The notes beneath the pieces are model-generated. The model worked only from the letters and a program-made list of their open reading frames with translations, had not been told where the DNA came from and made no database searches. Of a stretch of 32,667 nucleotides of DNA, positions 7,295-32,390 are shown in pieces (within the stretch, counting starts at the first letter, position 1; each line of letters starts with the position of its first letter). Both the position numbers and the translations under genes were made by a program. Origin of the DNA: a virus; the UHGV virus genome UHGV-0112844. The stretch is one strand, 5' to 3'.

Positions 7295-7892
7295 TCTGCT
7301 TCCTCCTGGTTCATCGGCGCTTGAGCGCCGACTTGCTCAGACCTGCAGCGGAATTTCCGATCTGCAGGTGCCGCTGCGGAATTTATGGAACCCGGCAACA
7401 TGCCCGGTCAAGTTTCTGCCGTATCTGGCGTGGGCCTTTTCGGTTGATCGCTGGGACGAAGGATGGGCGGAGAGCGTGAAGCGCCGTGTTGTGCAGGATG
7501 CGTTCTATATCCATCAGCACAAGGGCACAACCAGCGCGGTGCGGCGTGTGGTGGAGCCGTTCGGCTTTCTGATCCGCATCATTGAATGGTGGCAGACCGG
7601 CGAGGCGCCGGGCACGTTTCGCCTGGATATTGGGGTGCAGGACCAGGGCATAACAGAAGAAACCTATCTGGAGCTGGAGCGCCTGATTGGTGACGCCAAA
7701 CCCTGCAGTCGGCATCTGATCGGCATGTCCATAAATCTGCAGACGAGCGGGCCATATTTTGTGGGAGCTGCCACTTACACCGGCGAAGAAATCACGATTT
7801 ACCCGTATATCAACGAAACCATCATTTCCGGTGGCACTGCCTACGAGGGCGGCGCCGTCCATGTTATCGACACAATGAGAGTGAACCCATGA
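7287..7892 (+). CDS. I: baseplate protein gpI
   Basis: 201 aa at the synteny position between J and H. Confidence 0.8.
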   Translation: MNSLLPPGSSALERRLAQTCSGISDLQVPLRNLWNPATCPVKFLPYLAWAFSVDRWDEGWAESVKRRVVQDAFYIHQHKGTTSAVRRVVEPFGFLIRIIEWWQTGEAPGTFRLDIGVQDQGITEETYLELERLIGDAKPCSRHLIGMSINLQTSGPYFVGAATYTGEEITIYPYINETIISGGTAYEGGAVHVIDTMRVNP

Positions 7893-9280
7893 GCGCAAAA
7901 TTTTATACCCTGCTGACGGATATTGGCGCGGCGAAACTGGCAAGCGCTGCCGCGCTCGGTGTGCCGCTGAAAATTACCCAGATGGCGGTGGGGGATGGCG
8001 GCGGCGTGCTTCCAACTCCCAGCGCACAACAGACGAAGCTGGTTTCCGAAAAGCGGCGCGCTGACCTGAACATGCTTTACATCGATCCGCAGAACAGCAG
8101 CCAGATTATTGCTGAGCAGGTGATTCCTGAAACTGAGGGCGGTTGGTGGATTCGTGAGGTTGGGCTGTTTGATGAAACGGGCGCGCTGATCGCAGTGGGT
8201 AACTGCCCGGAGAGCTACAAGCCGCAGCTGGCAGAGGGAAGCGGCCGCACGCAGACAGTGCGCATGGTACTGATTACCAGCAGCACCGATAACATTACGC
8301 TGAAAATTGACCCGTCCGTAGTGCTGGCTACCCGAAAATATGTGGATGACAAGGTGCTGGAACTAAAGGTGTATGTAGATGAGCTGATGGCGGCGCATCT
8401 TGCAGCAGCTGATCCGCATACGCAATATGCGCCAAAAGCCAGCCCGACGTTTACCGGCACCCCAAAAGCCCCGACTGCAGCTGCAGGTAACAATACTACT
8501 CAGCTTGCCACAACTGCGTTTGTGCAGGCGGCTCTGATCGCCCTGGTGAATGGCGCCCCGGCGACACTGGACACGCTGAAAGAAATTGCTGCGGCTATCA
8601 ACAACGATCCTAATTTCAGCACCACCATTACTAACGCTCTTGCACTCAAAGCCCCACTGGCAAGCCCGGCCCTGACCGGAACACCGACGGCACCCACGGC
8701 TGCGCAGACTGTCAACAATACGCAAATTGCCACTACTGCTTTCGTAAAATCAGCTCTGGCTGCGCTTGTTGGCTCATCACCTGCTGCGCTTGATACCCTG
8801 AACGAGCTGGCGGCGGCGTTAGGAAACGATCCTAACTTTGCAACCACCATGACAAATGCGCTGGCAGGCAAGCAGCCGCTGGATAGCACGCTAACAACTT
8901 TGTCTGGAAAAACCGCAGATGGGATTATCGAATACCTTCGTTTGGGAGAAGCGGCAAAAATGGAGGCGGCCACCGCACAGATCGGTGCTAATGGATGGCT
9001 ATATATTCCCGTTACTGGCGGCAAAAAAATGCTGCTGCAGTGGGGGCTTTTAACCGGTGCGAGTAATTATTCTTTTAAATTCCCAATTGCATTTCCCGTC
9101 GGTGGTTTATGCCTGGTTGCTATGGCCCATACAACTGATTCCGCTGATGTGAGCATGGTAACTATGACTAATGGATTTATCAGGGATAAAACCAGCGCGT
9201 TTGCTTTGTGCGCCAGAACAGTGAACGGCGTGCAGCAACCTTTTGAACGTAGCGTTTACTGGTTCGCTGTTGGCTACTGA
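7889..9280 (+). CDS. H: tail fibre protein gpH (constant N-terminus + currently resident variable C-terminal cassette)
   Basis: 463 aa with a P2 gpH-like N-terminus. Two ~72-aa internal fibre repeats lie in the middle (PTFTGTPKAPTAA…/PALTGTPTAPTAA…). A crossover site lies at the LRLGEAAK codons, and the protein ends …WFAVGY. Confidence 0.9.
   Translation: MSAKFYTLLTDIGAAKLASAAALGVPLKITQMAVGDGGGVLPTPSAQQTKLVSEKRRADLNMLYIDPQNSSQIIAEQVIPETEGGWWIREVGLFDETGALIAVGNCPESYKPQLAEGSGRTQTVRMVLITSSTDNITLKIDPSVVLATRKYVDDKVLELKVYVDELMAAHLAAADPHTQYAPKASPTFTGTPKAPTAAAGNNTTQLATTAFVQAALIALVNGAPATLDTLKEIAAAINNDPNFSTTITNALALKAPLASPALTGTPTAPTAAQTVNNTQIATTAFVKSALAALVGSSPAALDTLNELAAALGNDPNFATTMTNALAGKQPLDSTLTTLSGKTADGIIEYLRLGEAAKMEAATAQIGANGWLYIPVTGGKKMLLQWGLLTGASNYSFKFPIAFPVGGLCLVAMAHTTDSADVSMVTMTNGFIRDKTSAFALCARTVNGVQQPFERSVYWFAVGY
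8925..8950 (+). other. Gin/Hin-type inversion crossover site inside gene H (left boundary of invertible region)
   Basis: The sequence CCTT CGTTTGGGAGAAGCGGCAAAA encodes LRLGEAAK. The same motif recurs four times in inverted orientation downstream, with the same core dinucleotide TT/AA. Confidence 0.7.
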
Positions 9281-9375
9281 CGTCAAAATATTGTGTTATT
9301 ACTCACACAAAGTAGCTAGATAATTTTTTTATGAAACCGCACTTACGATCTGAGTTTCAAACTAAGGAGTGCGTT

Positions 9376-9849
9376 ATGAACTATTGGTTTAGCCCTGCAA
9401 ATAATGCTTTTTATCCCGTAGCTTTAAAGGAGTCTTATGTAAATGCAGGTAGTCTCCCGAATGATTTAATCGAAGTGGAAGATAGCGTGTTTAGCGAATT
9501 TTCCGCGACGCCACCAGAAGGGAAGTTGCGTGGCATTGGAGCTGATGGGTTGCCGATCTGGATTGATATTCCCGTTGTGGAAGAAAGCCCGGAACAAATC
9601 CAGGCACGCGCCCGTGCTTTGCGGGATGAATTCATCGTCAGTACAGATCGGATGCTTGTTTCTGATTACACTATCAACAATGTTTTATTAACCTCTGAGC
9701 AGCAAGCGGAGCTGTTGGATGTAAGGCAAAAGTTTAAAGTTTGGCCTGAGAGTGAGGGATGGCCGGGCATAGCGTTGCCTGCGATACCTCAATGGATTCT
9801 CATTGAGGCAGTAAACAACGGTTACGTAGTAAAAAATTGGCCTGAGTGA
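9376..9849 (+). CDS. G: tail fibre assembly chaperone gpG (Caudo_TAP family)
   Basis: MNYWFSPANNAFYP… is the canonical tail-fibre-assembly N-terminus. The ATG at 9376 follows an aaggag RBS. The track ORF 9331.. is an upstream extension. Confidence 0.9.
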   Translation: MNYWFSPANNAFYPVALKESYVNAGSLPNDLIEVEDSVFSEFSATPPEGKLRGIGADGLPIWIDIPVVEESPEQIQARARALRDEFIVSTDRMLVSDYTINNVLLTSEQQAELLDVRQKFKVWPESEGWPGIALPAIPQWILIEAVNNGYVVKNWPE

Positions 9850-9851
9850 AA

Positions 9852-9876
9852 TAAAGCCCGTAAGGGCTTTATTTTT
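9852..9876. terminator. bidirectional rho-independent terminator
   Basis: Hairpin AAAGCCCGtaaGGGCTTT with an A-run before it and a T-run after it. It lies between convergent gpG and silent cassette A. Confidence 0.6.
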
Positions 9877-9913
9877 AATAACCCATTCCAGTCAGGTTCG
9901 CTACCGGATTAAT

Positions 9914-10283
9914 TTAAAAACCTATTGCAAACCACGTAAACATACGGGAGTTACCAGGCAGCGTATCATCAAGGAAAAACTGAGCATTAGCGCCGGTTTT
10001 CGTTGGGTAGCCGACTGAAACAGCTTGCCTTAAAGTTCTATACGATGGCACATAATCATAATTTGATGCCCTTACGCCTGCGCTTGAATATACACCGAAG
10101 CAAGCCGCCGGGAACGCGACAGGAAACGTAATATCACAATTATATGTAGTGCTTGTTACGCCTCCCTCCCATCGCCCCACTGCACTATTAACATAACACC
10201 GCCGGTTAGCGGGAATTTCGCCCAGCCGCTGTTAGACAAAACGCCGCTCGCTGCTGCGAGTTTTGCCGCTTCTCCCAAACGAA
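9914..10283 (-). pseudogene. silent alternative tail-fibre C-terminal cassette A, disrupted by a frameshift
   Basis: In frame with the crossover site it reads …LGEAAKLAAASGVLSNSGWAKFPLTGGVMLIVQWGDGREA* and stops. The homologous continuation (GGVTSTTYNCDITFPVAFP…WFAIGF*) is in another frame from about 10180 (GTG-start ORF 9914..10180). Other cassettes are co-linear (…QWG…FPIAFP…AIGY). Confidence 0.65.
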
Positions 10284-10295
10284 CGTTTTAACTAT
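10270..10295 (-). other. inverted crossover site A
   Basis: TTGCCGCTTCTCCCAAACG AA CGTTTTA is the reverse complement of the H site, with the core dinucleotide preserved. Confidence 0.7.
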
Positions 10296-10659
10296 CTCCC
10301 TATTGCTAAAAGGCGCGTACCGCCGTTATTAGCTGTTGATAAATTTCTGAGTAAAATTGACTTCTTAGCATCAGTTACAGAAGCTGCATCTATGGCAATG
10401 GATATAGGTGTCGTTCCATTGGCGGCGGCAGCGGGAGCCGCAACCACAAACATCATCGCGTTAGGGAAAGTGATCGGATAAATTACTTCAAGCGCCCCAC
10501 CTGCCGGTATTCCGTTAACCCCAGCACATTGGATAATTATCCCGTTTGGAAGTTTGCAATAACCACTAACCCCGCTAAAAGCGTTAGCGAAAAAGCTCAT
10601 ATCCGGCAGCTGGTTGGCTGCCGTCCCAACTTCCCTTTTTGCCGCTTCCCCCAAACGAA
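10292..10659 (-). CDS. silent alternative tail-fibre C-terminal cassette B (promoterless, begins at crossover site)
   Basis: Reads (LRL)[25 protein letters not shown]…YPITFPNAMMF…LLAIGR*. It is homologous to cassette D and to the gpH C-terminal architecture. Confidence 0.7.
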
Positions 10660-10671
10660 CGTTATTTGCTT
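10646..10671 (-). other. inverted crossover site B
   Basis: TTGCCGCTTCCCCCAAACG AA CGTTATT. Confidence 0.7.
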
Positions 10672-11031
10672 AATATCCTATGGCTATAAACCGGAATGAC
10701 ACGTTTGCATTTAACGCATTTAGAACGGCTCCAGCCTGAGATAACTTAACCGCTCTTGTAGTAAAAGTTGAAAGGGTTGCAGGCGCTGCAGAACCAAACC
10801 CAACGCCAGCATCCTCAGGATTATTATGCGTAACATATACTTGTGCAAACACGGATGGGAACGCTACAGGAAGCGAAGATGTGTAGACCTCTCCACTACC
10901 TGCTGTATTAACAGCACCTTGCCCCCATTGAAGAATTAAATTTTTGTTACCACTCATCGGGATTTTGGCCCATCCGTTATAGCCAATAACACCGCTAACA
11001 GCTGGCAGCGTTGCCGCTTCCCCCAAACGAA
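10670..11031 (-). CDS. silent alternative tail-fibre C-terminal cassette C
   Basis: Reads GEAATLPAVSGVIGYNGWAKIPMSGNKNLILQWG…LPVAFP…FIAIGY*. It has the same GW-K-P…QWG…FP-AFP…AIGY skeleton as the resident gpH tip. Confidence 0.7.
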
Positions 11032-11043
11032 CGTTTAATACCC
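11018..11043 (-). other. inverted crossover site C
   Basis: TTGCCGCTTCCCCCAAACG AA CGTTTAA. It abuts or overlaps the stop codon of cassette D. Confidence 0.7.
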
Positions 11044-11393
11044 TATAGCCATCCAGTAAATAGAATTGGAGGTAGGAGTAACGTAAGTAAATCTGGCCTT
11101 AGTTGTAGACGTATTGCCAATATCGAATCCAGTAAAACGCATGGATGGATCGTTTGTAGACATTAAAGCGCTGAGATGTCTGAATGCAGTAGGGAATGCA
11201 ATTGGGAAAGAAATGTCAGTGGTTCCTACTGCCCCAGATGTGCCGTTGACGTTAAGCGCCCCCCATTGAATGATCAGCCCAGTCGGTAATTTTTGATACC
11301 CATTGAAACCTAAAGAACCGGCAAAGTTGCTCATATCAGGAAGCTGGTTTGCACCATTGCCGACCCCCCGTTTAGCTGCTTCCCCCAAACGAA
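11035..11393 (-). CDS. silent alternative tail-fibre C-terminal cassette D
   Basis: Translation from the site reads [27 protein letters not shown]…ISFPIAFP…WMAIGY*. Confidence 0.7.
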
Positions 11394-11405
11394 GGTTTTT
11401 TCTTC
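11380..11405 (-). other. inverted crossover site D (right boundary of invertible region)
   Basis: CTGCTTCCCCCAAACG AA GGTTTTT. Like the H site, its outer arm diverges (ACCTT rather than AACGTT). Confidence 0.65.
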
Positions 11406-11513
11406 ACCACGGTCATGATTGTCCGTGTTGGCCATTCTCTGCAGTACAGTCAGAAATGACCATGCTCGATAAAATGGTGGCATCATTCACCACTTTTTTA
11501 TGGGCGAAAAATC

Positions 11514-12101
11514 ATGCAAATCGGTTACGTGAGGGTGTCAACAAATGACCAAAACACGGCTTTACAACGAAATGCGCTGGAGTGCGCAGGATGTGAGCTG
11601 ATATTTGAGGACAAAATGAGCGGAAAAACCTCAGATCGGCCAGGGCTAAAGAAGGTCCTGCGCACACTCTCAGAAGGTGACACGCTGGTAGTTTGGAAGC
11701 TGGACAGATTAGGCAGGAGTATGCGGCATCTTGTTACTCTGATTGAAGACCTGCGAGGGAGAGGAGTAAATTTCCGCAGCCTGACAGATAGCATTGATAC
11801 ATCAACTCCGATGGGGCGTTTCTTTTTCCATGTTATGGGTGCCCTGGCAGAAATGGAGCGAGAGCTGATCGTAGAGCGAACCCGTGCCGGGCTGGCTGTA
11901 GCGCGTGCGCAAGGGAGGATTGGTGGCCGACGGCCAAAGCTATCAGAGGATGAGTGGGCGCAGATTGGCCGGTTGCTGGCTGCCGGAGAAACGCGAAAAC
12001 GCGTTGCTCTGATTTTTGATGTGGGTATATCAACGCTGTACCGCAAATTTCCCGCGTCTGCCGTGGCGCCATTGTCTGAACGCTCAGACACTCCTGTATA
12101 A
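11514..12101 (+). CDS. serine recombinase, Gin/Hin/Cin/Pin-family DNA invertase
   Basis: MQIGYVRVSTNDQNTALQRNAL… closely matches the Gin N-terminal catalytic domain (the position of Ser-10). 195 aa with a C-terminal HTH. It lies immediately downstream of the invertible cassettes, as in Mu G/gin. Confidence 0.92.
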   Translation: MQIGYVRVSTNDQNTALQRNALECAGCELIFEDKMSGKTSDRPGLKKVLRTLSEGDTLVVWKLDRLGRSMRHLVTLIEDLRGRGVNFRSLTDSIDTSTPMGRFFFHVMGALAEMERELIVERTRAGLAVARAQGRIGGRRPKLSEDEWAQIGRLLAAGETRKRVALIFDVGISTLYRKFPASAVAPLSERSDTPV

Positions 12102-12159: not shown

Positions 12160-12912
12160 ATGCAAAAAGCAGTTATTGGCGCGGCAACTATTTACTGTGG
12201 TGACAGCCTGGAAATTTTGCGCGAACTCACTGGCGAATTTGATGCAGTGATTACTGATCCGCCTTATTCCAGCGGTGGTATGACGCGCAGTGATCGGCAG
12301 GCTAAACCCTCCGGGAAGTATGTAGGCAATAACAACTACCATGAGTTTTTCGGCGATAACAGAGACGTGCGCTCCTGGGCGTTCTGGATGACGCAGTGGA
12401 TGAGTCAGGTTAACCGCCTGGTTAAGTCAGGCGGCTATGCCATGGTTTTCACTGACTGGCGGCAGCTTCCAACGCTTACTGACGTTTTCCAGGCTGGCGG
12501 TTTTGTGTGGCGGGGGCTGATTCCGTGGGATAAAACGCTTTCAACGCGTGCGCCTCATACCGGTTATTTTCGTCATCAGTGCGAATACGTGGTTTGGGGA
12601 AGTAACGGACCATTGCCTAAAAGTCTGCATGGTGGACCCTGGCCGGGCATGGTAACTCGTCGGGTTATTCCGTCTCAAAAACTCCATATGACCGGCAAAC
12701 CGATTGAGCTTATGGAGAGCCTGGTTGCTCCCGTTCCTCCTGGCGGCCATATTCTTGATCCATTTATGGGGAGTGCATCAACTGGCGTTGCTGCGCTGAG
12801 GAAGGGATACAAATTTACCGGGATTGAAATGAGCCAGCAGTATTTTGATATCTCATGCGAACGCCTGGAAAAAGAAAACGCAGATATCCGCGCGGGCGTA
12901 TTGTGTGATTAA
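12160..12912 (+). CDS. DNA methyltransferase, beta-class N6-adenine/N4-cytosine (N6_N4_Mtase family), orphan
   Basis: Motif IV DPPY at aa 33-36 precedes motif I FMGSASTG at about aa 195. This IV-before-I order defines the beta class. No nuclease partner is adjacent. It sits in the Z/fun position between G/invertase and FI. Confidence 0.85.
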
Positions 12913-20199: not shown

Positions 20200-20271
20200 T
20201 AATGTTCACAAAATGGATGTTCGTGTATCATTATGGGATTGCGGGTAATGACTTGGGGAGAAACGGATATG

Positions 20272-20487
20272 ATGAATTGTCCGAAATGCGGACACGCGGC
20301 ACATACTCGCAGTAGCTTTCGTGTATCAGATAATACGAAAGAGCGTTATTGCCAGTGCCAAAACATAAACTGTGGAACCACTTTTGTTACTCATGAAACC
20401 GTAGTGCGCTTTATCGTAACTCCCGGACAGGTCGATCATGTGCCTCCGCACCCTCTAAACAGTGGTCAGGGACACATGAATTTTTGA
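20272..20487 (+). CDS. ogr: Ogr/Delta-family zinc-finger late transcription activator
   Basis: MNCPKCGHAAHTRSSF…RYCQCQNINCGTTF… carries the Cys4 motif of P2 Ogr. 71 aa from the second ATG. The track ORF starts 39 nt upstream. Confidence 0.85.
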   Translation: MNCPKCGHAAHTRSSFRVSDNTKERYCQCQNINCGTTFVTHETVVRFIVTPGQVDHVPPHPLNSGQGHMNF

Positions 20488-30627: not shown

Positions 30628-32390
30628 TAAAAAATCTCCACGATGTTGCTGGTACTGGCGGAAGCTCCTGCCAGTGGTTCGTTATAAAGTGCGTGCATGG
30701 TTGCCCAGGCTAAATCCGCGTGGCTGGCTTCCTCTGTGCGGGATGCTTCGTAGGTTGGCCGGTTGCCGCTGGCGGTGGTTGAACGGCGAATGGACATAAA
30801 GGACTGCGCGATATCCAGCATCCCCGCGTCAAACTCCAGACGGCGCCCGCTGATGATGTCGTAGGCTTTAAGCACCAGGGCATTTTTAACAGTCGGGTTG
30901 TAGACAAACTCACGCGCGGCTGGGAAGAACTGCTTAACCGTTTTGTAAACACCATCGCCAACGCCGGTCGAGTCAATGCCGATGTAGGTCACGTTGTAGC
31001 GTCTGGTGATTTCCTCAATCGCTGAGGCCTGGGCGCGAAAGTCCATCCCGCGCCACTGGTGACGCTCAAGGATGCGGAATTTACCGCCGGGGACGACGGG
31101 AGGCGCAATGACCACGCAACCGGCGCTGTCACCGTTCTGCGTTCCTTTTGCCGGGTCATAGCCAATCCAGACAGGGTGGTATGCAAACGGACGCAGTAAA
31201 AGCGGTTCGAAATCGTCCCACACGTCCCAGCTGTCAACCATGCAGGACTGCAGCAACGCCAGCGGGAACACGGACGCCAGATCGTCAACAAACTGACACA
31301 TCAGCAGGTTGTTGTATTCGTCCGGGCTGTACTCCAGGCGCAGCTGGTCCAGGTCGAAAAGGTTACACCCGCCGTTTACGGCATCTTCAATAGTGACTAT
31401 CTGGCGGTACTGGCCGTCAGGGCATAAAACGCCGTGCGCCAGGCTACTGTGAGAAAGGTCAAATTCCACCCTGTCGGCTTTCGGGCGCCCTTTATTGAAC
31501 AGGGCGCCAGACCAGAACGGGTAGGCGCTGTGCGTCAGGCTGGAAGGGGTAGAGAAATAGGTCTGACGCCATTTTTTGTGCAGCGCCATACCGGAGGCCA
31601 CCTTGCGCAGCTCCTGGAATTTCGGTATCCAGAAATACTCATCAAGATACAGATTGCCGTGATAGCTCTGCGCGGTACGGGCATTTGTACCGAGGAAGTA
31701 AAGACAGGCACCGTTAGGCAGCACCATCGGATCGCCTTTCAGCTCAACGTCCACCTCTTTTGCAAAGTCGATGATGTACTGTTTAAAAACGTGCGCCTGA
31801 GCTTTACTCGCTGACAGAAAGATTTGATTTCGCCCCGTGGTGAGCGCGTCTATCAACGCTTCACGGGCGAAATAGTAGGTTGCACCGATCTGGCGTGACT
31901 TTAAGAGGTTGCGGATACGGTGCTTGATGCCAGCGTCCCACCAGTGGCGCTGGTACTCGAACATACCGGCGCGGAAAATCTCTTCCAGCTTTTCGATCTG
32001 CTCGTCGGTAAACAGGTTTTTTTCCGGCGGCTTGCGCGGACCTTTATTGCGGTTCGCCACGTTCGGATTCAGGTCTGCTTCATTCCCGCCATTGTTAAAT
32101 TTGCCGATTCTGGCCTGTCGTTCGGACTGACGCGCCAGCAGGTCAATTTCTTTAAAATCCTTTCCTTCCTTCTGCTCCTTCATGACGAGCTGGCAGTAAC
32201 GTGCGGCGGTGGTGAGCTGCATCTGATCCAGTGGGCCATATTCGCCCCACTTATCGCGTTTTTTCCAGCTGTGAACGGTTGCAACTTTCTCGCCCAGCAT
32301 TTCAGCAATGCGGGCTACGCGGTATCCCTGAAAGTACATCAGCATTGCCTGACGACGGGGATCGAGGTCTGCGGGGGTCAGTGTTGTCAT
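30627..32390 (-). CDS. P: terminase large (ATPase) subunit gpP
   Basis: 587 aa from the ATG at 32390 (MTTLTPADLDP…). The track ORF extends 35 codons upstream. Contains a Walker-type segment. Confidence 0.88.
   Translation of the reverse strand: MTTLTPADLDPRRQAMLMYFQGYRVARIAEMLGEKVATVHSWKKRDKWGEYGPLDQMQLTTAARYCQLVMKEQKEGKDFKEIDLLARQSERQARIGKFNNGGNEADLNPNVANRNKGPRKPPEKNLFTDEQIEKLEEIFRAGMFEYQRHWWDAGIKHRIRNLLKSRQIGATYYFAREALIDALTTGRNQIFLSASKAQAHVFKQYIIDFAKEVDVELKGDPMVLPNGACLYFLGTNARTAQSYHGNLYLDEYFWIPKFQELRKVASGMALHKKWRQTYFSTPSSLTHSAYPFWSGALFNKGRPKADRVEFDLSHSSLAHGVLCPDGQYRQIVTIEDAVNGGCNLFDLDQLRLEYSPDEYNNLLMCQFVDDLASVFPLALLQSCMVDSWDVWDDFEPLLLRPFAYHPVWIGYDPAKGTQNGDSAGCVVIAPPVVPGGKFRILERHQWRGMDFRAQASAIEEITRRYNVTYIGIDSTGVGDGVYKTVKQFFPAAREFVYNPTVKNALVLKAYDIISGRRLEFDAGMLDIAQSFMSIRRSTTASGNRPTYEASRTEEASHADLAWATMHALYNEPLAGASASTSNIVEIF

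Follow-up and report, generated by a model that had tools for sequence, protein, structure and literature searches.

The stretch of DNA analysed here, called the window throughout, is the virus genome UHGV-0112844 (32,667 nucleotides, 32.7 kb), which represents the complete genome of a P2/186-like phage. It encodes scaffold and capsid proteins, terminase, the baseplate series V-W-J-I, the tail fibre H, the sheath FI, a tape measure protein, D, Ogr, an integrase and a 186-type CI repressor, and the nearest proteins to its own are found in the Enterobacter cloacae complex. Our subject is the region that begins within the 3' part of the fibre gene, where five alternative C-terminal fibre tips, five crossover sites and a serine DNA invertase are accompanied by a single tail-fibre-assembly (tfa) chaperone gene. 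The evidence suggests that this one gene has a late promoter of its own inside the invertible DNA, and that its product may serve more than the tip beside it.

Fibre gene H combines an N-terminal part like that of P2 gpH with a C-terminal tip of the Gp53-like_C family, and its DNA likeness to other Peduoviridae fibres stops at about 8950-8960 (Table 1). Four further tip cassettes, A to D, follow one another head to tail across 9914-11388, all of them encoded by the minus strand, and B, C and D each have their stop codon within the outer half-site that belongs to the next cassette. Gp53-like_C (PF21882) scores above threshold in all five tips, at 35-68 bits against a cut-off of 24.9, and the tips share 23-43% identity with one another. 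For the resident tip, tip0, a structural model of low to modest confidence (mean predicted local distance difference test score, pLDDT, 63) gave AP22 gp53 (4MTM) as its best Foldseek match (E 8e-4, template modelling score, TM, 0.59), followed by the C-terminal feet of R1 and R2 pyocin fibres; at this pLDDT the fold matches serve as a hint only. Cassette A lacks 1 nt of a G-run at about 10166-10170 relative to the intact copies found in two related loci (L008 and L011; related loci are cited by L numbers), its minus strand over 10160-10185 reading CAGTGGGGCG here and CAGTGGGGGCG there, and the resulting frameshift divides it into two open reading frames (ORFs). The missing base reflects either a true frameshift or an error in sequencing the homopolymer. 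Of the four alternative tips in this genome, three (B, C and D) are intact and A is frameshifted. No match to the cassette region was found in E. coli genomes.

The invertase, a member of the Gin/Cin/Min family, carries the resolvase catalytic domain and the C-terminal helix-turn-helix typical of Din-family enzymes. Five cix-like sites of 26 bp, each made up of a 12-bp half-site, a central TT and CGTTTGGG(A/G)GAA, also have the form known from that family, with imperfect 12-bp half-sites around a common TT core and with S0 opposed to SA-SD. S0 falls within the H codons for ...YLRLGE... and is identical to P1 cixR at 21 of 26 bases, with the central TT shared. The P1 record places the Fis-dependent recombinational enhancer at 31678-31749, within the 5' portion of cin. 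Judged from the sequence, 8925-11405 can be assigned with high confidence to the Min/shufflon type of multiple-inversion system. A hairpin with a T-run at 11475-11492, shortly 5' of the invertase start, is terminator-like on both strands and may insulate the invertase from late read-through leaving the shufflon.

The chaperone gene sits between tip0 and cassette A. A profile of 19 tfa homologues matches the structure of Mu Tfa U (5YVQ_B, E 1.4e-4), and the product is 97% identical to a 'tail fiber assembly protein' of the Enterobacter cloacae complex; by sequence it belongs to the Caudo_TAP / Mu U / P2 G family. The start is placed at 9376, as the ATG at 9331 is replaced by ACG in most relatives, and a 95-bp spacer separates it from the stop codon of H. 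A search with the Tfa profile (hmmsearch --max, E <=10) in all six frames of 9850-11513 and in the whole window matched 9376-9849 only, and queries with P2 G, Cartapus U and U' and the second Tfa of Cronobacter phage JK004 detected no further Tfa-like sequence in the window. These profile and sequence searches reject cryptic chaperone fragments in the cassettes or elsewhere in the window. The original prediction, in which the gene was called gpG, is therefore borne out on its central observations: a single, sole Caudo_TAP gene within the invertible region beside the resident tip, cassettes that abut with the stop of one inside the site of the next (for the B, C and D stops), and no chaperone ORF between them. 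A search of the kind that it proposed for divergent chaperone fragments across 9850-11400 came back empty at E <=10, and its 'three or four' alternative tips can now be given as three intact ones and the frameshifted A. It was also right that the variable tips of Mu and P1 are each paired with a chaperone of their own, as the S-U/U'-Sv' layout of the P1 record and the same layout in Cartapus illustrate. The window breaks this rule, since one tfa accompanies five tips and no alternative tip has its own Tfa behind it.

Table 1. Features of the fibre-tip region and of the late activator gene (window coordinates).
Feature	Position	Strand	Details
Fibre gene H	7889-9280	+	PF12571 (P2-type collar domain) N-terminal, Gp53-like_C tip C-terminal
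Constant N-terminal part of H (P2 gpH-like)	7889..8936	+	PF12571, E 6e-64
Crossover site S0	8925-8950	+	TTATCGAATACC-TT-CGTTTGGGAGAA; inverted repeats with all four cassette heads
Resident tip, tip0 (Gp53-like_C)	8939..9280	+	PF21882, 36.2 bits
Predicted Ogr/B-type late-activator dyad	9292-9309	+	TGTGTTATTACTCACACA, perfect TGT-N12-ACA
Predicted -10 hexamer	9344-9349	+	TACGAT; ends 40 nt past dyad
Shine-Dalgarno of tfa	9364-9369	+	AAGGAG
tfa, sole tail-fibre-assembly chaperone gene	9376-9849	+	Caudo_TAP PF02413, 29.4 bits (cut-off 22.1)
Predicted bidirectional intrinsic terminator	9849-9876	both	Hairpin AAATAAAGCCC-GTAA-GGGCTTTATTT(TT), between tfa and cassette A
Cassette A (Gp53-like_C)	9914-10278	-	PF21882; two ORF pieces; always convergent with tfa
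Crossover site SA	10270-10295	-	Inverted relative to S0
Cassette B (Gp53-like_C)	10292-10654	-	PF21882, 46.7 bits
Crossover site SB	10646-10671	-	Inverted relative to S0
Cassette C (Gp53-like_C)	10670-11026	-	PF21882, 42.3 bits
Crossover site SC	11018-11043	-	Inverted relative to S0
Cassette D (Gp53-like_C)	11035-11388	-	PF21882, 67.7 bits
Crossover site SD	11380-11405	-	Inverted relative to S0; right edge of invertible region
Serine DNA invertase (Gin/Cin/Min family)	11514-12101	+	Resolvase PF00239, E 5.5e-51; HTH_7 PF02796, E 2e-14
Ogr/Delta-type zinc-finger late activator	20266-20487	+	PF04606, E 1.6e-21

The spacer in front of tfa contains an element that resembles the late promoters of P2. 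The dyad and the -10 hexamer predict a transcription start at about 9356, so that the dyad is centred at about -55 (55-56 nt), and AAGGAG and then the ATG of tfa lie downstream. Four late promoters that depend on Ogr and share the consensus TGT-N12-ACA have been described for P2 (PMC3931495), and in the annotated P2 record the activator sites are centred 55-58 nt upstream of the mapped PO, PV and PF starts. The stricter form TGTGT-N10-ACA occurs in the window at four sites only, namely PV (5401), PF (12902), the PO/PP region (32437) and the site before tfa (9292); these amount to five strand-hits where 0.67 are expected, a number that none of 100 shuffles reached. From dyad to gene, the distances for V and FI are 55.5 and 82.5 nt in the window as compared with 55.5 and 83 nt in P2. 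The dyad with its -10 geometry and the phage-encoded activator thus agree in sequence with a P2-type late promoter. We infer from them that the 95-bp spacer has promoter activity and depends on Ogr, and it quite probably is the late promoter of tfa.

Conservation points in the same direction. An exact TGT-N12-ACA lies 76-81 nt upstream of the tfa ATG in 47 loci, and its 12 sequence variants span at least seven lineages in which Tfa identity goes down to 55-60%; among their hosts are Enterobacter, Mixta and an Enterobacteriaceae bacterium that is unclassified. Between lineages, identity over the 48 nt 3' of the dyad is just 17-48%, and the conserved columns of the spacer are limited to T-TGT, ACA-A and a TAnnnT that ends 40 nt past the dyad, a spacing that is exact in 11 of the 12 diverged spacers. 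In Cartapus, with its paired U and U', dyads are present at PV and PF only and there is none within the invertible segment, and in a locus with two tfa genes (L046) the window's tfa family begins 14 nt past the tip stop and the dyad is absent. The ends of the dyad in the window form a perfect palindrome (TGTGT...ACACA), and the annotated P2 record gives one activator site for the divergent PP and PO; for these reasons the tfa dyad could also drive leftward transcription, antisense to tip0.

At its other end, tfa is followed directly 3' of the stop codon by a hairpin (AAATAAAGCCC-GTAA-GGGCTTTATTTTT) of -23.8 kcal/mol on the plus strand (z -6.3) and -21.5 kcal/mol on the minus strand (z -4.3). 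Past the stem, either strand continues into a U-rich tract, as would suit a terminator that acts in both directions. A promoter reading into the cassettes from the invertase side was also considered and rejected, since a sigma-70 scan of 11400-11513 found no minus-strand site, only the terminator-like hairpin at 11475-11492.

How tfa is oriented with respect to the fibre gene depends on which sites recombine. Isomers were enumerated with a model of four segments between five sites, inversion being permitted only between oppositely oriented sites, and 48 isomers are reachable. Those that express tip0 all have tfa directly downstream. With B, C or D as the expressed tip, tfa is in sense in 6 of 12 isomers each, because the internal sites invert as well, and with cassette A it is in sense in none, because A shares a segment with tfa and is convergent with it. 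The sense isomers of B, C and D need two steps, as in D> C> B> tip0> tfa> <A, and such isomers occur in public assemblies (L040, L060 and L067). The expectation that the chaperone gene would be antisense after inversion thus holds for single-step inversions but not overall, in that isomers expressing B, C or D have it in sense as often as not.

Searches with Tfa in viral, metagenome and genome collections and in the encoding contigs yielded about 60 loci; a genome-collection scan gave only three. Each P2-like locus with an invertase combines 2-6 Gp53-like tips with exactly one gene of this tfa family, and the core module is invariably tip> tfa> <tip. Inversion is documented in these relatives, as distinct from the window molecule itself, by an exact hybrid junction that joins the left half of S0 to the right half of the cassette A site (L011), by pairs of isomers and by the many orientation states encountered. 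One isomer pair has the same cassettes in the orders Hn> A> <tfa <tip0 <C <B' (L053) and Hn> B'> C> A> <tfa <tip0 (L052), and a second is formed by L020 and L058. Relative to the fibre gene, tfa is antisense in about 19 distinct assemblies, in sense and adjacent in about 11, and in sense but distal in three (L040, L060 and L067), where silent cassettes lie between the expressed tip and tfa. Relatives with two tips and one tfa exist in both states (L009, L010, L033 and L034 versus L014, L016 and L030), and their second tip can be expressed solely with tfa antisense. In four loci (L018, L045, L047 and L066) the tfa match is broken over two frames, apparently through frameshifts or through assembly errors at isomer boundaries.

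The family also reaches beyond P2-like phages. In P1-like elements (JK004, L027-29 and L044), a single member of the tfa family is found together with 9-11 Gp53-like tips. The JK004 orthologue of Tfa (58% identity) is located behind an A-like tip and not behind a tip0-like one. JK004 (L003/L004; MZ188976, 93.8 kb) is a P1-like Cronobacter phage that was isolated as a virion; its approximately nine Gp53-like tips lie in both orientations, and it has two different Tfa genes. Identity between tip cassettes of JK004 and cassettes B and C of the window reaches 93%, and this sequence likeness indicates that P2-like and P1-like phages exchange tips with one another.

Taken together, these observations favour, as a reasonably likely account, one shared Tfa made from its own orientation-independent late unit within a Min-type shufflon and serving all tips. 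In such a system, the Cin-like invertase would recombine the forward S0 with the four inverted sites that head the silent cassettes, and inversion would join any of the five tips of about 110 aa to the constant shaft. Rather than depending on read-through from H, tfa would form a small late transcription unit inside the invertible DNA, consisting of an Ogr-dependent promoter (dyad 9292-9309, -10 hexamer 9344-9349, start at about 9356), its own ribosome-binding site and the hairpin at 9849-9876. Tfa would then be produced late in infection in every isomer. In the flipped state, with tfa facing H, the shared hairpin would end both the fibre and the tfa transcripts. A single Tfa would finally help all of the structurally related tips, a component for which we would put the chances at even or slightly better. 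The most specific version, in which a generalist Tfa expressed from a fifth Ogr-dependent late promoter in invertible DNA folds Gp53-like tips of 23-43% identity, is a serious possibility but falls a little short of even odds.

The original prediction had offered three outcomes for the alternative tips: autonomous or intramolecular folding, expression of gpG from elsewhere, or non-functional fibres. Expression from elsewhere comes nearest to the evidence, although the source would be an Ogr-type promoter of the gene's own, with a bidirectional terminator, inside the invertible DNA. An intramolecular chaperone is unlikely and was rejected, as the tips of about 110 aa are covered entirely by the Gp53-like_C domain. 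Fixed fibres of the same tip class are directly followed by a Tfa in SfV (orf21/22), in Midge and in a Citrobacter locus (L026), and in SfV and Midge tfa abuts the fibre gene. By analogy with these fibres, a dependence of Gp53-like tips on a chaperone is the favoured view, and autonomous folding or non-function of the alternative tips is for the same reason less likely.

Several observations weigh against a shared Tfa under its own promoter. The promoter is predicted from motif, geometry and conservation. The dyad is present in a fixed locus (L042) and absent in a fixed lineage (L022/L026/L043), and two invertible loci (L033 and L045) carry dyads with one mismatch, so that this tfa family may have inherited the element from its ancestor instead of acquiring it as an adaptation to inversion. 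The P1-like phage-plasmids of the same one-tfa design (JK004, L027-29 and L044) have no dyad before tfa, and a P1-type late promoter (a -22 box AAGTTACTT, 4 nt and a -10) was sought at that position in them with no convincing match; the favoured explanation does not yet extend to these elements. On the side of the protein, tfa always lies directly behind a tip0-type cassette, and in L018 tip0 (49% identity) and the N-terminal part of Tfa (52%) have diverged jointly, a covariation that hints at cognate pairing between the two. In the tail-fibre shufflon of FRphi, a prophage of Enterobacter sp. BIDMC93, only one of three locked isoforms infects the test host (PMC13418256), which fits a difference in host range but fits chaperone failure as well.

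The same observations can be assembled into other explanations. If Tfa were cognate to tip0 only, or to the two tips that flank it, and the other tips folded and trimerised unaided, the dyad would just boost tfa. Such an arrangement would account for the invariable tip> tfa> <tip module with its tip0-type cassette upstream, for the joint divergence in L018 and for the dyad in fixed L042, and tips that are modelled as short single-domain beta-sandwiches might fold alone. Read-through from H would then suffice, yet a promoter-like element of exact geometry has been kept in at least seven lineages and is missing where each tip has its own adjacent tfa. The position of the JK004 orthologue behind an A-like tip also argues against cognate tip0 pairing, and the fixed fibres of this tip class have a Tfa beside them. 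We consider this explanation unlikely. Less likely again, and in our judgement improbable, is that tfa has no independent promoter and relies on read-through, with only the sense isomers infective and the antisense ones tolerated as dead ends. The sense orientation in half of the B, C and D isomers, its natural occurrence in L040, L060 and L067, and the two of three locked FRphi isoforms that are non-infective on the tested host would all be in keeping with it. It would mean, however, that the second tip of the two-tip relatives and the A-type tips could never work, whereas the former are intact ORFs and the latter are intact in relatives; nor would it explain why dyad and -10 are conserved at a fixed spacing, or why there is a two-way terminator, which is needed only if transcription arrives from both sides. 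That the cassette array is a decaying remnant whose chaperones have been lost and whose alternative tips are pseudogenes seems very improbable. The frameshift in cassette A of this genome is what would be expected of decay, but B, C and D are intact and above the Pfam threshold, all five sites have the same core, the invertase is intact, and many relatives share the design with an intact A and in several isomeric states.

Among known systems, the P1 C and Mu G segments, inverted by Cin and Gin, are the obvious comparison. As in the window, a serine invertase lies beside the segment, the sites are cix-like, 26 bp long and centred on TT, it is the fibre C-terminus that is switched, and the Tfa belongs to the same family as Mu U. 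Sites, tips and chaperones each number two in P1 and Mu (S-U/U'-S'), whereas the window has five sites, five tips and one tfa. In the paired systems, moreover, tfa lies directly against the tip gene or overlaps it, with no late promoter inside the segment, in contrast to the promoter-like spacer of 95 bp seen here. The Min system of p15B, reportedly described by Sandmeier and Iida as a many-site serine-invertase system with a constant fibre 5' part, alternative 3' parts and many isomers, would be like the window in its multi-site serine-invertase design. The P1-like phage-plasmids differ from the window, a 33-kb P2/186-like genome with Ogr-type late control, in having no TGT-N12-ACA before tfa.

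The element before tfa resembles PP, PO, PV and PF of P2 in having TGT-N12-ACA about 55 nt before the start, a weak -10 and a phage-encoded activator of the Ogr family. In P2, however, the V operon ends with G, while the window would have an extra promoter for one gene, situated in invertible DNA directly past the fibre stop. R-type pyocins (PA0620/PA0621) are similar in that a Tfa-type chaperone is encoded downstream of the fibre, and the low-confidence model of tip0 hints at a lectin-like beta-sandwich of the AP22 gp53 type in common; the pyocin locus does not invert and has a single fibre with its cognate chaperone, whereas in the window one chaperone would be shared by several tips. Among published cases FRphi comes closest, judged by its description: gin lies downstream of the fibre gene, and three C-terminal isoforms occur at about 50/25/25% (PMC13418256). 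By our inference, these proportions are what a [a> tfa> <b] <c arrangement would give if its four isomers were equally frequent. The FRphi paper contains no mention of a tail-fibre assembly protein or chaperone (PMC13418256), and the literature searched yielded no account of one Tfa shared among tips, nor of a late promoter located within invertible fibre DNA.

Other genes in and around these shufflons appear to be cargo. In the window, a DNA methylase gene (12160-12912) lies between the invertase and the sheath gene, where the cargo of FRphi is fliC-tldR (PMC13418256). The methylase is preceded by a TGT-N12-ACA dyad of its own (TGTCTGAACGCTCAGACA, 12073-12090) within the 3' end of the invertase gene; a TAACCT ends 40 nt past it and its centre is 78.5 nt from the ATG, the same geometry as for tfa, and the dyad is found in L018 too. 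In a prophage of Mixta sp. Marseille-Q2659 (L021, 8467-9426), a low-GC ORF of 320 aa with PIN_12/PIN_8 matches lies between tip cassettes as cargo in the shufflon. Prophages of Enterobacter hormaechei (L023-L025; for example L023 6432-7295) also have a tip module that is not Gp53-like, in which a different tip is accompanied by two ORFs (145 and 140 aa) that match no Pfam family. L023 has this module joined to its fibre, while L025 carries it in silent form; these shufflons mix tip classes, and the two ORFs could represent an unrecognised type of chaperone.

If one Tfa does serve all five tips, the system would break the rule that each tip needs a cognate chaperone and would constitute a one-to-many relationship between chaperone and tip. 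It would also show which part of Tfa recognises the shared, as opposed to the variable, features of the fibre. The engineering of host range in phages and tailocins is constrained by the belief that a swapped tip must bring its own chaperone, and a Tfa that serves many Gp53-like tips would offer a portable toolkit of tips plus a generic chaperone. The locked-isoform experiments with FRphi left the chaperone out of account, and a shared Tfa would imply a control that they need. For the P2/186 phages, a late promoter would be added to a late regulon that has been described as having four. An autonomous cistron closed by a bidirectional terminator would make the helper gene insensitive to orientation within the shufflon, and would thus illustrate how shufflons keep accessory genes expressed in either orientation.

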